IMG/VR virus record: IMGVR_UViG_2706794678_000007 | Origin: a virus | Taxonomy: Duplodnaviria; Heunggongvirae; Uroviricota; Caudoviricetes | Length of the DNA: 30,068 nt | Direction: 5' to 3' (one strand) | Shown here: positions 4,148 through 9,711 of the stretch, piece after piece | How positions within the stretch are numbered: position 1 is the first letter of the stretch | Layout: every line of letters begins with the position of its first letter | Notes under the pieces: generated by a model | Told to the model about the DNA's origin: nothing | Database searches by the model: none | What the model saw: only the letters and a program-made list of their open reading frames with translations | Made by a program: the position numbers and the translations under genes

Positions 4148-4486
4148 CTATTTTTTGGTGCTATAGACTTTTTCGCCCGAAAAGTCTGGAGCGACCCAAA
4201 AGTTAATATTAAACTGAGCATCATCGCTTAGTTCAACACGGTGCCAGTATTGTGGTGGGCTTGTTGCAAAAGCGCCAGCATTAATGACTACTTTTATCTC
4301 CGGTTCAGTAGCATTCTCATCAGTAAAACCATAATATGTTACAGTGCCTTCCATTACGCACAACTGCCCAAAAACACCTGCTGCTGTATTATGATGTGTT
4401 AATAACGCTGAAGGTACGTTCTCTTTTGTGAAGAACGGAGTTGAGCGTTTGATTACCCAATCTTTAGGAATTCTCTTGTGTGTCAT
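4148..4486 (-). CDS. DUF1971 family protein, YeaR-like
   Basis: Minus-strand ORF-track 4148..4510. Start trimmed to the ATG at 4486, which has SD GGAGGAGG (reverse complement of 4491-4498). Length about 112 aa and motifs (RSTPFF…, FNINFWVAP) resemble E. coli YeaR as I remember it. Confidence 0.75.
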   Translation of the reverse strand: MTHKRIPKDWVIKRSTPFFTKENVPSALLTHHNTAAGVFGQLCVMEGTVTYYGFTDENATEPEIKVVINAGAFATSPPQYWHRVELSDDAQFNINFWVAPDFSGEKVYSTKK

Positions 4487-4501
4487 AACCACCTCCTCCA
4501 A

Positions 4502-4524
4502 AACATGCATTAAAAATGCATCTT
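4502..4524 (-). promoter_or_regulatory. candidate NsrR operator (11-1-11 inverted repeat) in the yeaR-like promoter
   Basis: AACATGCATTA-A-AAATGCATCTT closely matches the NsrR consensus AAnATGCATTT-n-AAATGCATnTT. Sits 16-38 nt upstream of the start codon; a TTGACA -35 on the minus strand lies at 4536-4541. Confidence 0.5.
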
Positions 4525-5299
4525 TTGGAGGGTTATGTCAAGCTGTTATGAAACACATAATTGATATGTTGATTAGAGGAGAAGATAGAATAAATATGGT
4601 TGTTTTTCGTATAACTATTTGTTTTACTTTTAGTTTATGCATTCTGTGTGTTAGGAATAAGTTATTAAAGTTTAATCAAAAAATCTCGATGTAGTCCACA
4701 TAGATTACTGTTACTGAACCTTATTGTGTGTATTAGTTGTGTTCTGAAATTTCAGCTTAATTATTTATGATGTATTTTTTAACGATAAATATTTTCCCAG
4801 GATACCTTTACTGTGTATATAAATAAATTATATACGCATAAATAATGTAAAGGCGTCCTTTTAGATATATCTTATCAAATGTTAATGACTTGAGTGGGAA
4901 ATATGATTCCAGCAACTTATCATGTGGCTACTTTATAAAAATAATGCCCATATAAAACAACAAGCGAAAAGGATTACGGATAAAAAAGGAGCGAGATGTG
5001 CGAACTTGTTATTTTCCATGTTTAACCACCTTAAATAATTGATGATGACGGGATGATTGCATCTGTAATGCTTTTATTGAAATGTTATGATAAAAAAGAA
5101 CTTTTGCATAACATTAAAATGTAATTTATCTAATCGTTTTTAATAATAAGTGTCGTATTTCTATCCTTGTACCAGCTATTTGATATGTAGTGTTTGTTCA
5201 TGCTATGTGGGGCTTTACACCATAGCCAGTTTATTTATACTTTATTCGTCAGCCTGAACAACTGGCATCTGCTGCGCTGCGCCATCGAGAGATTGAGAA

Positions 5300-5899: not shown

Positions 5900-6189
5900 T
5901 GGTGAATTTACGTAAAGCGGCTAAAGGCCAGATGTGCCAGATCAGAATCCCTGGCTACTGCAATCACAATCCCGAAACCTCTGTGCTGGCGCATTACAGG
6001 CTGGCGGGGACGTGCGGAACAGCGACAAAACCACATGATATGCAGGCGGCGATAGCCTGTAGCTCATGCCACGATCTAATCGACGGGCGGGTAAAAACCA
6101 GCGATTACACCAAAGAAGAATTGCGCCTGATGCATGCTGAAGGGGTTTTTCGCACACAAGAAATCTGGAGAAAGAAAGGTCATTTATGA
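5899..6189 (+). CDS. DUF1364 family protein (YbcO-like, Cys-rich putative nuclease/zinc-binding)
   Basis: 96 aa, Cys-rich (CQIRIPGYCNH…CSSCHD). Stop of the previous gene overlaps its start. Same length and nin-region position as DLP12 YbcO. Confidence 0.7.
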   Translation: MVNLRKAAKGQMCQIRIPGYCNHNPETSVLAHYRLAGTCGTATKPHDMQAAIACSSCHDLIDGRVKTSDYTKEELRLMHAEGVFRTQEIWRKKGHL

Positions 6190-6728
6190 TTTACCCAACG
6201 AATACAGGAAAAAGCGGAGAACACCTTCGCCTCACCACGCTGGAAAGTGTCTGGATTCAGGGAAAACTACGTATGTGGGGGCGCTGGTCGTATATTGGCG
6301 GTGGCAGGTCAGGGAATATGTTCAATCAGTTGTTGGCATCCAAAAAACTGACGAAAACAGCCATTAATGAAGCCCTGCGCAGAATGAAAAAAGCGGGAAT
6401 AGAGAAAGCTGAGCTGGAAGCGTTTTTGCGAGAGATGATCAACGGCAAGCAAAAGAGCTGGCTGGCGCATTGTACTGATGCAGAGGCGTTATGTATTGAT
6501 CGAGTCATAAGTGAGGTGCTGGCAGAGCATCCAGGATTGATTTGCATTCTCCGGCAACGCTATGAAGGGCGGGGGATGACTAAGCGCAAAATGGCTGAAT
6601 TGCTAAATGATGCACACCCAGAGTGGTGTTTTAGCACATGCGAAAAACGGATTGCTAATTGGTTAGCTGTTGCTGAGTATGCCCTATATATTCCCATGCG
6701 TGAATCATTTGCTGAGAAAATGGCTTGA
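6186..6728 (+). CDS. Q: late-gene antiterminator Q (Phage_antitermQ-like)
   Basis: Sits after nin genes and before the lysis cassette. W-G-R-W motif (LRMWGRWSY) resembles the QuuD-family signature. Overlaps the upstream gene by 4 nt. Confidence 0.6.
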   Translation: MIYPTNTGKSGEHLRLTTLESVWIQGKLRMWGRWSYIGGGRSGNMFNQLLASKKLTKTAINEALRRMKKAGIEKAELEAFLREMINGKQKSWLAHCTDAEALCIDRVISEVLAEHPGLICILRQRYEGRGMTKRKMAELLNDAHPEWCFSTCEKRIANWLAVAEYALYIPMRESFAEKMA

Positions 6729-6745
6729 TTTCTTACGTATAAACT
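6705..6745 (+). promoter_or_regulatory. candidate late promoter PR' region (-10-like TATAAA at 6738-6743); -35 not confidently placed
   Basis: Just 3' of Q, about 75-95 nt upstream of the tR'-like terminator, as expected for a lambdoid late leader. Confidence 0.3.
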
Positions 6746-6814
6746 GCTTCAATTTTGCTATGCTTCGCAAAGCTGTATCGCGAGGCGGATTGCAGACATG
6801 GACATCGTAAAAAA

Positions 6815-6836
6815 ACCGCTTAATGCGGTTTTTTTA
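6815..6836 (+). terminator. rho-independent terminator (tR'-like) downstream of Q
   Basis: AACCGC-TTAAT-GCGGTT hairpin followed by TTTTTTT (6830-6836), with an A-run before it. Confidence 0.6.
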
Positions 6837-7156
6837 CGTCAGGAAAGCAGGGGAGAATGCTGCTAGTTGGGCAACTGGTCTTTCTGCTCCAAATTATAAC
6901 AGAGACCAGTTATAGTTTCGGTGCTGTGTTTTTTTTACAATATTGTGATAACACATTGCTGGCGGGAGTTTTGATATTTCTTGGCAGGGGCTGATGATGC
7001 GTTATCCTGATGTCGTCAACTCATATAAAATGAGATGAGAGATCATTGCAGGGTGGTTTGTAATTCGCTGTTTAGCGGGACAATATGTTGTCTGATACAA
7101 GACACCCGACGCCTCAGATTACTATAATAAAGACGAAGCATCCTTTGTATTGACCA

Positions 7157-7185
7157 ACCGCCTGTTTAGGCGGTTCTTTTTGGGC
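7157..7185 (+). terminator. rho-independent terminator-like hairpin in the Q-S intergenic region
   Basis: AACCGCCT-GTTT-AGGCGGTT (8-bp stem) followed by CTTTTT. A TATAAT at 7124-7129 lies about 30 nt upstream. Confidence 0.45.
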
Positions 7186-7737
7186 TGGTTTATTGTATGC
7201 CAAATGATTATTAAAAAGGTTGTGTTAATAACAAGATCCGAAATAATATGCCTGCATATTTTTATCTTGCTTATATTCTGCATATTGTGCATAGCAGGCT
7301 CATCCCTGCAATCAAAACTGTATGATGAGTATTTTTTGTTTTCCTTTTTTCCAGTCATCTGATGATGACCTGCTTCTTTTTAATCCGGATCGACATCAGT
7401 TTTTTAAGATAATTCCTGCGAGTTATATGCATAAATGCCACAAACTCCGCATTTTATGTGGTTGGGAGTTGCCGGGCGCGCAGTGAGTTTGCTAAGAAAA
7501 CTCCTGCATGGTGAATCCCCCTGTGCGGTGGGGTGATACCATTAACCTTTTCTGTCGCCGACAGGTATCACGAACATTTTGTTCACCGGGAGGCACCCGG
7601 CACCATGCACTTCAATAGATTCTCTCCACATTATGGATATTCTTTCAGAATATCCCACGCAGACTTTGTGTAAATGTTAACAAATGTGCGTTTTATTTGA
7701 TCTGATTCGCTGTTTGAGCGTCCAAAACAACGGTATA

Positions 7738-7743
7738 TATAAT
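7738..7743 (+). promoter_or_regulatory. candidate -10 (TATAAT) for the first TolA-like lipoprotein gene
   Basis: TATAAT about 30 nt upstream of ATG 7773; RBS GAGGAA directly upstream of the start. Weak -35. Confidence 0.3.
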
Positions 7744-7772
7744 CCTTTACTATATGACATATGTGAGGAAAA

Positions 7773-8201
7773 ATGGGTTTTCGTAGCGCATCAATTCTTA
7801 CGTTGATTATTAGTGGGATTATTATCGGGTGCACTGATGCTGTATCGACAAATTATCATGACCGTACATCATATTACTCCGATAAAGCAATAGAGACACA
7901 GTATGTGAGTTCATCTGAACGTACTTCTGATGTTAGTGAGGATATCCGTCTGTATGCCCATCAAATCAAGAGCGCCATCGAAAAACAGTTCGGGGATGCG
8001 AGTAAGTATTCAGGAAAAGAGTGTACACTGAGAATGCATATGGCCCCGAATGGCCTTCTACTGGAGGTTAAAAGAGAAAGTGGAGACCTCGATTTATGTC
8101 GTGAAGCGATGAATGCGATAAAGAATGCTGATATACCTGCCCCCCCTTCGCCGGAAGTATATAAAGTATTTCAAAATGGGGTGCTGGATTTTAAACCCTG
8201 A
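7773..8201 (+). CDS. lipoprotein with TolA C-terminal (domain III)-like domain
   Basis: Signal peptide plus lipobox (IIIGC). C-terminal …YAHQIKSAIEKQFGDASKYSGKECTLRMHMAPNGLLLEVK…PPSPEVYKVFQNGVLDFKP closely parallels E. coli TolA domain III (…CTLRIKLAPDG…PPSQAVYEVFKNAPLDFKP, from memory). Confidence 0.8.
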   Translation: MGFRSASILTLIISGIIIGCTDAVSTNYHDRTSYYSDKAIETQYVSSSERTSDVSEDIRLYAHQIKSAIEKQFGDASKYSGKECTLRMHMAPNGLLLEVKRESGDLDLCREAMNAIKNADIPAPPSPEVYKVFQNGVLDFKP

Positions 8202-8351
8202 TATTTATTGTTTTGTAATAAACGGTTTCGGCTTAGGTTTGTTCTGACACAGCTACGGCACTGAGCTAAATTTAGCGGATAGTCAGCTCTGAGCCAGTGG
8301 CGGACGTAACAACTACTATTGCTGAGATTTTAATGGATTGAGGAGCAAGAA

Positions 8352-8747
8352 GTGGGATTAAAGAAAATCGTTATGTTGACTTTTTGGGTCGGTTTTGTTG
8401 CGGGATGCACACCTTTACACCCTTCAGATTGCCACAAAACTACTGCTACAGGTAGTTGCAGTTCAGGACGCTGGGATGATCAGGATGAATGGGGGGCGCA
8501 AGCGCGGGGAATCAGAGCTGCAATTAATGCCAAACTTGATGAGCCGCATAACTGGAAAGGGAAAAAATGCAGGTTGCATATGGAATTCTCTCAGGATGGC
8601 ACGGCGTTAAAAATATCTACCAGTAACGGTGATAAAGCCTATTGCGAAGCGATAAAGTCCGCAGCTCATAAAGCCAAATTTCCGGCCTTCAACAATCCGG
8701 AAGTCTACAGAGATTTTCAGAAATCTGGCTTTGACATGCGAGGTTAG
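8352..8747 (+). CDS. lipoprotein, paralog of the upstream gene, TolA domain III-like
   Basis: GTG at 8352 with GAGGAG at 8340-8345 (6-nt spacer). Lipobox (VAGC). C-terminal KKCRLHMEFSQDGTALKIS…NNPEVYRDFQKSGFDM aligns with the upstream protein and with the TolA III pattern. Confidence 0.75.
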   Translation: MGLKKIVMLTFWVGFVAGCTPLHPSDCHKTTATGSCSSGRWDDQDEWGAQARGIRAAINAKLDEPHNWKGKKCRLHMEFSQDGTALKISTSNGDKAYCEAIKSAAHKAKFPAFNNPEVYRDFQKSGFDMRG

Positions 8748-8872
8748 CTCTTCAATTACTATATCTCATTCATAGCAAACTGACAGATTTGATGATGTTC
8801 TATATACGAAACCTGTGATGTCAAGTCTGAGCTAATACAAATAAACATAATATCAGAGAAATACATTTTATT

Positions 8873-8896
8873 AGCTCGCTACGGCGAGCTTTTTAT
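8873..8896 (+). terminator. rho-independent terminator after the lipoprotein pair
   Basis: AGCTCGC-TACG-GCGAGCT hairpin followed by TTTTTAT. Confidence 0.5.
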
Positions 8897-8998
8897 ATTG
8901 CATCGTCTCCAGCATATATATCAATTAAGGCTCTGATTGATGTGTCTGAAAGCCTACACATAATAACTATGCCATCCGTTCCGTGCGGAGGTGAGGCT

Positions 8999-9214
8999 AT
9001 GAAATCCATGGACAAAATTTCAACAGGCATTGCCTACGGCACCTCCGCAGGCAGTGCTGGCTACTGGTTTTTACAGTTGCTCGATAGAGTAACTCCGTCA
9101 CAGTGGGCTGCAATCGGTGTGCTGGGTAGTCTGGTATTTGGCCTGCTGACGTACCTGACAAACCTTTATTTCAAGATTAAAGAAGATAAGCGCAAGGCTG
9201 CGAGAGGTGAATAA
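8999..9214 (+). CDS. S: class II holin, phage 21 S-type pinholin (dual-start MKSM motif)
   Basis: 71 aa ([29 protein letters not shown]…[11 protein letters not shown]), two TMDs and a charged C-terminus. Start trimmed from ORF-track 8942; GGAGG upstream. Overlaps the endolysin start by 1 nt. Confidence 0.9.
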
Positions 9215-9711
9215 TGCCTCCATCATTACGAAAAGTCGTTGCTGCTGCTATTGGTGGCGGAGCAATTGCTATAGCATCAGTGTTAATCACTGGCCCAAGT
9301 GGTAACGATGGTCTGGAAGGTGTCAGCTACATACCATACAAAGATATTGTTGGTGTATGGACTGTATGTCACGGGCATACAGGAAAAGACATCATGCTCG
9401 GTAAAACGTATACCAAAGCAGAATGCAAAACACTCTTGAATAAAGACCTTGCCACTGTCGCCAGACAAATTAACCCGTACATCAAAGTCGATATACCGGA
9501 AACAACGCGCGGCGCTCTTTACTCGTTCGTTTACAACGTGGGCGCTGGCAATTTCAGAACATCGACGCTTCTTCGCAAAATAAACCAGGGCTATATCAAA
9601 GGCGCATGTGATCAGCTACGTCGCTGGACATATGCTGGCGGTAAGCAATGGAAAGGTCTCATGACTCGTCGTGAGATTGAGCGTGAAGTCTGTTTGTGGG
9701 GGCAACAATGA
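9214..9711 (+). CDS. R: SAR endolysin (phage 21 R-type lysozyme)
   Basis: 165 aa. N-terminal hydrophobic Gly/Ala-rich SAR segment ([20 protein letters not shown]), then an E-x8-D-x5-T lysozyme motif. Confidence 0.9.

Follow-up and report, generated by a model that had tools for sequence, protein, structure and literature searches.

The 6S RNA of phage lambda and the StxS RNA are short transcripts that run from pR' to tR', and polymerase modified by Q must pass later terminators. RNAs of another kind, the 3'ETS-leuZ type, bind Hfq and reportedly arise by cleavage of a tRNA operon's 3' trailer. Here we analyze the stretch that separates the putative tR' from the first moron gene (positions 6840-7770) in a viral DNA of 30,068 nucleotides (nt), IMG/VR record IMGVR_UViG_2706794678_000007, hereafter called the window. 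The main feature of this stretch is a gene of the STnc100 family of small RNAs (sRNAs). STnc100, EcOnc27 and PasD are expressed, Hfq-bound prophage sRNAs encoded at the moron site 3' of pR' (PMC4104026, PMC5331693, PMC12711010, PMC8550237, bioRxiv 10.64898/2026.05.13.724894). Eleven transcribed copies of STnc100 are known in strain EDL933, and STnc100_4 has been confirmed by Northern blot (PMC5331693). STnc100 overlaps the Hfq-bound sRNA EcOnc27/sRNA103, located downstream of stx2B (PMC12711010, PMC4104026), and PasD1 and PasD2 of enteropathogenic E. coli (EPEC) have been reported as its structural relatives (bioRxiv 10.64898/2026.05.13.724894). AgvB and AsxR (EcOnc01/02), prophage anti-sRNAs of 51-60 nt, are also encoded at the pR' moron site (PMC4104026).

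The explanation that we consider probable is that the stretch is a late-operon leader and moron insertion site, extending from the putative tR' to the first moron and carrying three RNA modules on the sense strand. Module 1 (6931-7181) would be the decayed copy of a tRNA-trailer RNA of about 260 nt, of which a linker and the terminator T1 remain; module 2 (7186-7381) would be an AT-rich segment that ends in a weak terminator-like hairpin, T2; and module 3 (7476-7662) would be a full-length STnc100 gene placed directly upstream of the moron's own promoter.

Judged by its sequence and predicted fold, module 3 is a bona fide member of STnc100, a multi-copy sRNA family of lambdoid prophages. The match spans the full model (positions 1-206), hence is not truncated, and is the only one above threshold in the Rfam scan of the window. 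Helices P1 (7505-7513/7601-7609), P2 (7517-7533) and P4 (7586-7600) are all present, and P1 encloses the two hairpins expected of the family, CCCCC-UGUGCGG-(U)GGGG and CCGGG-AGGCA-CCCGG. The fold has a z-score of -4.08 relative to shuffled sequences, and its centroid reproduces the helices of the family. The location is also that of the family: the copy has the orientation of the late operon, is preceded by the Q-like gene and is followed by a TolA-like moron and, further on, by the holin and lysozyme genes, and loci L002-L005 harbor 1-4 copies each, always sense to the late operon and between Q or the tRNAs and the morons. Outside near-identical prophages, the STnc100 core is the only widely shared part of the stretch: positions 7485-7609, or parts of them, are matched in hundreds of genomes, O157:H7 strains among them, and in Stx1 phages. 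The core is inherited together with the first TolA-like gene in other prophages and in phage mEp460 (7485-7770 at 87%).

A previous examination made from the letters of the DNA, without database searches (the sequence-only reading), had missed this gene. It had proposed that the spacer might hold an sRNA where related phages carry tRNAs, and had named an Rfam scan among the possible checks. The idea was sound, as sister prophages carry 1-4 tRNAs at the exact slot and an STnc100 gene is found here; the scan gave one strong sRNA match, 300 nt away from the features that had been highlighted.

Alignment of the window copy with 9 other copies indicates where it departs from the family. The 3' hairpin (7635-7655; folding free energy, dG, -10.8) lacks a U tract: the model's U positions align to gaps, and the sequence continues with CACGCAG. 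This absence does not bar membership, as copies L002a, L002b and L005b share it and score above the gathering threshold. The promoter-like element that precedes other copies has here a poor sequence, TTGCCG-18-TAAGAA (7469-7498). Because the U tract is missing and the -10 element is poor, the window copy may not be made as a discrete sRNA of the Hfq type. A discrete Hfq-associated STnc100 RNA is known for other copies (PMC5331693, PMC12711010, PMC4104026); the window copy may be made as a discrete RNA, or may exist only within longer transcripts.

EcOnc27/sRNA103 of O157:H7 and the window copy agree in the whole-model match, in P1, P2 and P4 with their conserved loops, in sense orientation and in slot. 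They differ in the 3' hairpin, which is AU-rich and without a U tract in the window, in the poor -10-like hexamer, and in their neighbors: stx2 or a nanS-p esterase gene for STnc100/EcOnc27, a TolA-like lipoprotein moron in the window. PasD1 and PasD2 of EPEC strain E2348/69 occupy the same late-operon slot and comprise a structured region, a single-stranded U-rich seed and a terminator. In PasD, the seed UGUGAG is located 3' of the core, whereas the AGUGAG of the window lies 5' of P1 and the 3' tail is different. The PasD1 locus has no BLAST similarity to the window (its intergenic region gave no blastn match at E<=1e-3) and itself scores below the STnc100 gathering threshold. The PasB and PasD1 loci of E2348/69 were thus discarded as counterparts: neither has a BLAST match in the window, and PasB lies in another slot, between tail genes.

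The STnc100 alignment also reveals two promoter subtypes. Tandem arrays exist, with 4 copies in strain 317 (L002:3310-4425) and 3 in strain M6 (L005:3436-3609 and 4331-4793); they stand upstream of esterase or TolA-like morons, and a real terminator is found in some copies only. A motif TAAATG..A(A)CAAA...GC.TTTTAT.TG flanks the STnc100 unit of the window on both sides (7668-7700 and 7425-7465) and is found again upstream of other copies. It might mark the boundary of a unit or serve as a binding site.

Features of the stretch and its surroundings (positions in the window; bp, base pairs; dG, folding free energy; z, z-score)
Feature	Position	Strand	Details
Q-like antiterminator gene	6186-6728		DUF1133 / Phage_antitermQ
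Putative tR'	6806-6838	+	14-bp perfect stem CGTAAAAAAACCGC/GCGGTTTTTTTACG, U run; dG -19.7, z -5.76
9-bp inverted repeat	6873-6881/6903-6911	+	AACTGGTCT/AGACCAGTT, 21-nt loop
Decayed long hairpin	6934-7019	+	homologous to the long hairpin of L005, L006, L010-L013 and about 40 viral-contig variants
Junction-domain remnant (STnc100-like)	7032-7115	+	closing helix 7032-7037/7110-7115, 5/6 paired
TATAAT hexamer in AU-rich linker	7123-7128	+	-10 element or A-rich Hfq-type linker
Conserved stretch	7138-7155	+	GCATCCTTTGTATTGACC; just 5' of T1, unpaired in the consensus fold; candidate seed
Intrinsic terminator T1	7156-7181	+	stem AACCGCCT/AGGCGGTT (7156-7175), loop GTTT, then CTTTTT
AT-rich module U2	7186-7351	+	carries two overlapping spurious open reading frames
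Weak terminator-like hairpin T2	7352-7381	+	CAGTCATC/GATGAcCTG then CTTCTTTTT; dG -7.8, z -3.17
STnc100-family sRNA gene	7476-7662	+	Rfam RF02076; 86.6 bits, gathering score 47; E 1.7e-17
Promoter-like site of first moron	7714-7743	+	TTGAGC-18-TATAAT; Shine-Dalgarno (SD) sequence GAGGA at 7765
First moron gene	7773 (ATG)-8201		TolA C-terminal domain lipoprotein, PF06519, E 2.4e-23
Second moron gene	8352-8747		TolA C-terminal domain lipoprotein, PF06519, E 1.3e-14

The nature of module 1 becomes apparent when the window is compared with prophages that carry tRNAs. Prophages that share the Q module (strains M6, THO-008 and 1428), as well as others with different Q types, carry a cassette of 1-4 tRNA genes just past tR', and the cassettes of M6 and RM10740 possess their own promoter-like element. 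Homology between the window and these relatives breaks off at the tR' T run and begins again at a T run past the last tRNA gene, which is tRNA-Gly; hence, positions 6840-7185 of the window correspond to the post-cassette DNA of the relatives. Module 1 was found by BLAST and MAFFT to be homologous to the post-tRNA segment of loci L005, L006, L007 and L010-L013. A pattern search of viral contigs yielded 39 distinct variants of the segment, and a consensus structure was computed on 20 of them (alignment A4).

In the relatives, the segment is an RNA element of about 260 nt made of a 34-bp hairpin, a junction with the four helices J-P1, J-P2, J-P3 and J-P3b, an AU-rich linker and, at the 3' end, the terminator ACCGCC-loop-GGCGGT with its eight U. 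Copies are found at L037:6684-6946, L005:2821-3083 and L006:3042-3306, and about 40 further variants exist. The element begins 115-127 nt past tRNA-Gly in 59 of the 69 countable copies that are not of the window type. In the consensus structure, 98% of cells are paired, compared with 40-56% in slid controls; 11 pairs are changed on both sides, and none of 500 shuffles is as good. The long hairpin carries a conserved apical sequence and contains 7-8 G.U pairs, and its folding energy is -42.5 kcal/mol (z -6.8) on the plus strand, only -17.3 on the minus strand. The G.U pairs and the strand-specific folding indicate that the hairpin forms in RNA, in the late-sense transcript. The same data (-17 vs -42 kcal/mol) rule out that it is a DNA palindrome or the end of a miniature inverted-repeat transposable element (MITE).

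The whole element of about 260 nt has no Rfam family match at the gathering score. In seven variants, its junction, linker and terminator give STnc100 matches, alike in place and strand, that stay below threshold (19-27.6 bits; gathering score 47), and the junction shares with STnc100 the GGGAGGCACCC hairpin that adjoins the 3' strand of the closing helix. With modest confidence, we propose on this basis that the junction domain may be a diverged relative of STnc100. Regarding distribution, one scan of genome contigs for the long-hairpin motif detected only Escherichia ruysiae and two doubtful matches, which permits no statement beyond Escherichia. An analogy for the element is 3'ETS-leuZ: in the relatives, module 1 is likewise the trailer of a tRNA operon that is driven by a promoter, and ends at the terminator of that operon. 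The likeness is an analogy alone, as module 1 is about 260 nt long, highly structured and prophage-borne, and the window has no tRNAs.

Set against its relatives, the module 1 copy of the window is a relic in which only the linker and T1 are intact. The apical sequence of the long hairpin (GGGAGTTTTGATATTTCTTGGCAGGGG, 6964-6990) is conserved, and 23/28 plus 6/6 of the pairs are kept (29/34). The consensus fold reaches only -8.4 kcal/mol (z -0.5), compared with -42 kcal/mol in relatives, and is not the minimum free energy structure; a stable 34-bp hairpin is therefore lacking. The junction is likewise incomplete: helix J-P3b is deleted (0/7 pairs), J-P2 retains 2/5 pairs and J-P1 5/6, the 5' arm of the GGGAGGCACCC hairpin is also deleted, and no STnc100 match is detected in this remnant by Rfam at E<=5. 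The 3' terminator is present in its entirety (ACCGCC-loop-GGCGGT and U tract, 7156-7181). None of the 20 window-type copies has a tRNA within 700 nt upstream, so that the 115-127-nt spacing from tRNA-Gly seen in relatives has no counterpart in them. The simplest reading is that the lineage lost the cassette and that the trailer decays except for the terminator module, but evolution may have proceeded in the opposite direction, with a cassette that was never gained.

The sequence-only reading had recognized no tRNA genes in the stretch, and indeed ARAGORN found none in the whole window and Rfam gave no tRNA match (RF00005) at E<=5 in 6500-9300. Its suggestion of decayed tRNA remnants failed: what has decayed is the counterpart of the structured trailer found behind the tRNA cassettes of relatives. 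True tRNA remnants do exist in relatives, while none is seen in the window: an apparent tRNA 3' half (GGTGCGGGGTTCGAGTCCCCGGTGACGGTCCA) lies at L006:3615-3645, downstream of the homologue of the mini-unit described below, and a weak tmRNA/tRNA-like Rfam match is found in the same lineage (L027:1479-1574).

A second element that had attracted attention was an inverted repeat at 6873-6911, described as a long hairpin. The arms and loop are as had been reported. Its fold (-13.1 kcal/mol, z -2.06) is only marginally unusual, with 7 of 200 shuffles folding as well, and perfect inverted repeats of at least 9 bp within 40 nt occur in 13% of dinucleotide shuffles of the region. In relatives, the corresponding DNA is the spacer that separates tRNA-Gly from the long hairpin; neither L005 nor L006 conserves the left arm of the repeat. 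The repeat has no comparative support as a conserved element, and no function is supported.

The last 60 nt of the element of about 260 nt of the relatives correspond to what had been described as a promoter-terminator mini-unit (7123-7181) able to make an sRNA of roughly 50 nt. Both parts of the unit exist. The TATAAT is present one base away from the position given for it, and belongs to a promoter-like match, AAGACA-18-TATAAT, without a real -35 element. Promoter-like sites are common in this AT-rich DNA: 9 are observed in the region and 4.5 +/- 1.9 are expected. A hexamer of the form nAnAAT (TATAAT, TACAAT, AACAAT, CATAAT or TAAAAT) is found in all full-type variants, with no -35; the -35 position is occupied by AAGACA in the window and by (A)GGCAC(C) in relatives. 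The 18-nt stretch that precedes T1 becomes TCATCCCTTGCATTGACC in the majority of the diverged variants. The terminator had been correctly identified, and comparison with relatives supports it. All 7 pairs and the U tract of T1 are intact in the window; the ACCGCC/GGCGGT stem is identical in the 20 aligned variants except for one mismatch in L005, and is present in 40 of 40 unique variants. The loop varies freely while the stem stays invariant, which we take as a sign that T1 is under selection for termination. The proposed sRNA itself fares less well, since a -35 is lacking and in relatives the terminator ends a far larger structured RNA.

An RNA made from the mini-unit would resemble AgvB and AsxR in size and in the kind of site. 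Their genes run convergent (antisense) to the late operon; the mini-unit, in contrast, is sense. Neither of the two (RF02702/RF02703) has a match at E<=5 in 6500-9300. Identity with a known prophage sRNA (AgvB, AsxR, Esr41, IsrK or others) was likewise rejected, as no Rfam match falls on the mini-unit at E<=5. The sub-threshold matches found in 6500-9300 at that cutoff to isrK, AgrB and OrzO-P (20-22 bits) coincide with the hairpin of tR'.

Module U2 is common only to L005 (strain M6, about 85%) and L006 (strain RM10740, about 65%). A hairpin followed by a T run occupies the T2 position in both, with a different stem sequence. The sequence-only reading held that no credible open reading frame (ORF) lies in the stretch, and this view is upheld. 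The ORFs at 7150-7362 (plus strand, 70 amino acids, aa), 7122-7358 (minus strand) and 6857-6994 (plus strand, hydrophobic, 45 aa) match no Pfam family, and the diverged homologous segments of L005 and L006 do not preserve their reading frames; hidden proteins were thus discarded.

The surroundings are those of a lambdoid prophage of E. coli. The prophage is of the Rac type, since a nearly identical region (99.9%) adjoins trkG in many E. coli chromosomes, and the whole stretch is found at >=99% identity in about 450 of 5,426 complete genomes. The name tR' for 6806-6838 is putative and is based on position, about 80 nt past the stop codon of the Q-like gene. The window resembles lambda tR'/6S RNA and StxS in having a strong terminator at that distance from Q, followed by more terminators; this counterpart, assigned by position, sits just outside the stretch 6840-7770. 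The leader between the Q stop codon and the tR' hairpin (6729-6838) is a candidate for a short RNA like 6S or StxS; its weak isrK match (21.6 bits, E 0.09) is probably owed to the terminator. Downstream of the two TolA-like lipoprotein genes are the genes for holin, lysozyme and Rz. The tandem TolA-domain lipoproteins may be a superinfection-exclusion or colicin-protection moron. The start of the second of these genes is overlapped by a weak STnc350 match (8333-8403; 22.2 bits, gathering score 60, E 0.54), which is probably due to chance. About 2 kb upstream, RefSeq annotates a Hok/Gef family toxin gene in the identical prophage (L001:1843-1998, window ~4680-4840); despite this annotation, no sok or hok RNA was matched in the Rfam scan of the window at gathering score.

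A tentative mechanism can be proposed. In the lysogen, transcripts from pR' would stop at tR', and we infer from their position that T1 and T2 would back up this terminator, thereby keeping the morons and lysis genes dependent on Q. The STnc100 RNA would be produced from its own weak promoter or cut from read-through transcripts. By analogy with its Hfq-associated relatives EcOnc27/sRNA103 and PasD, it would act as a base-pairing sRNA in which a structured core stands beside a single-stranded stretch. When Q is present, all the elements would be read through, and would form the 5' leader of the late mRNA. A number of points weigh against this explanation. The window copy of STnc100 lacks the U tract of the family terminator, and its TAAGAA hexamer lacks the critical last T. 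Expression of the RNAs of this prophage is presumed from their sequence, and the role of T1 and T2 as backup terminators from their position. The decay of module 1 is the sole indication that the tRNA cassette was lost and not simply never gained, and the scores that link the junction to STnc100 are below threshold. Lastly, the function of the STnc100 core has not been established in the literature (PMC9029176).

Alternative explanations start with the mini-unit, which might be an independent gene whose product, an sRNA of about 48 nt, would start near 7135, downstream of the TATAAT at 7123-7128, and end at T1. The -10 hexamer is perfect, nAnAAT keeps the same alignment position in all full-type variants though the linker varies, a canonical terminator immediately follows the conserved, unpaired 18-nt stretch, an arrangement seen in seed-plus-Hfq modules, and this very prophage site is known to encode sRNAs of 51-60 nt (PMC4104026). 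We nevertheless regard this possibility as doubtful: neither a -35 nor an extended -10 exists, and the -35 position lies within the GC-rich 3' strand of the junction helices; promoter-like matches, twice as frequent as in shuffles, are common; AU-rich linkers of the ARN type readily yield -10-like hexamers; no Rfam family, AgvB, AsxR and Esr41 included, is matched at E<=5; and the terminator in relatives ends a covarying 260-nt structure that has its own upstream tRNA promoter. A bolder speculation, which we advance with reserve, is that 7123-7181 might function as the 3' module in a family of Escherichia prophage RNAs not yet described, appearing either as a primary sRNA of about 48 nt started from nAnAAT or, in tRNA-bearing relatives, as an sRNA cut from the trailer of about 260 nt. 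The long hairpin of that trailer resembles an RNase III substrate, and CAUCC(C/U)UUG(C/U)AUUGACC would be the seed. At the other extreme, everything in 6840-7470, that is, besides STnc100, might be neutral backbone in decay, with inactive terminators and hexamers. The long hairpin and the junction have clearly decayed, U2 is conserved in close relatives only, and the ~450 genomes carry alleles so similar (>=99% identity) that they are uninformative on constraint. Neutrality seems rather unlikely to us, as T1 stands fully intact (7/7 pairs and U tract) beside decayed helices, and in three lineages T2 retains a hairpin and a T run although the stem sequences differ.

Doubts about module 3 concern its mode of action: the STnc100 copy might serve in cis, as a leader that affects the stability, processing or translation of the TolA-like moron transcript or the late mRNA, and not as a trans-acting sRNA. 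Since no U tract follows its 3' hairpin, transcripts would continue into the moron; the core and the tolA-like gene are inherited together, as seen in mEp460, and the family forms tandem arrays upstream of morons. We find a cis role quite unlikely. Family members have been detected as discrete Hfq-bound RNAs (PMC4104026, PMC12711010, PMC5331693), the moron promoter-like site lies downstream of STnc100, so that transcripts of the moron only would lack it, and the SD is not sequestered in the fold of 7476-7800. Pairing between STnc100 and the ribosome-binding site of the tolA-like gene was also considered and discarded, as the SD is free in the same fold and an 8-bp long-range match, GAAAACUC/GGGUUUUC, looks like chance. 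Very improbable, and already largely refuted, is that the region holds decayed tRNA genes or a hidden small protein gene. Sister prophages do have tRNAs in the slot, and ORFs of 45 and 70 aa can be drawn; yet ARAGORN detects no tRNA, Rfam none at E<=5, homology resumes only past the cassette, and the ORFs have neither a Pfam family nor conserved frames. We maintain that a late-operon leader with three sense-strand RNA modules is the probable explanation.

The region is a known hot spot for sRNAs and morons downstream of pR' in lambdoid prophages, and is in this regard ordinary for such phages; any Rfam-based annotator would give its main element the STnc100 label. STnc100 is among the most abundant annotated families of bacterial sRNAs, and its function is not established; the tandem arrays and the putative relative fused to the 34-bp hairpin offer a comparative handle on the core. 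The tRNA-less allele illustrates that, once the cassette is gone, the hairpin and the junction decay while the linker and the terminator persist, and this persistence suggests that selection still acts on the terminator module. The part worth following up is the structured RNA found behind the tRNA cassettes of relatives. If the view of 7123-7181 as a working 3' module is true, the tRNA cassette would be a combined operon of tRNAs and sRNA, and STnc100 would represent a single branch within a larger family of structured RNAs from prophages.

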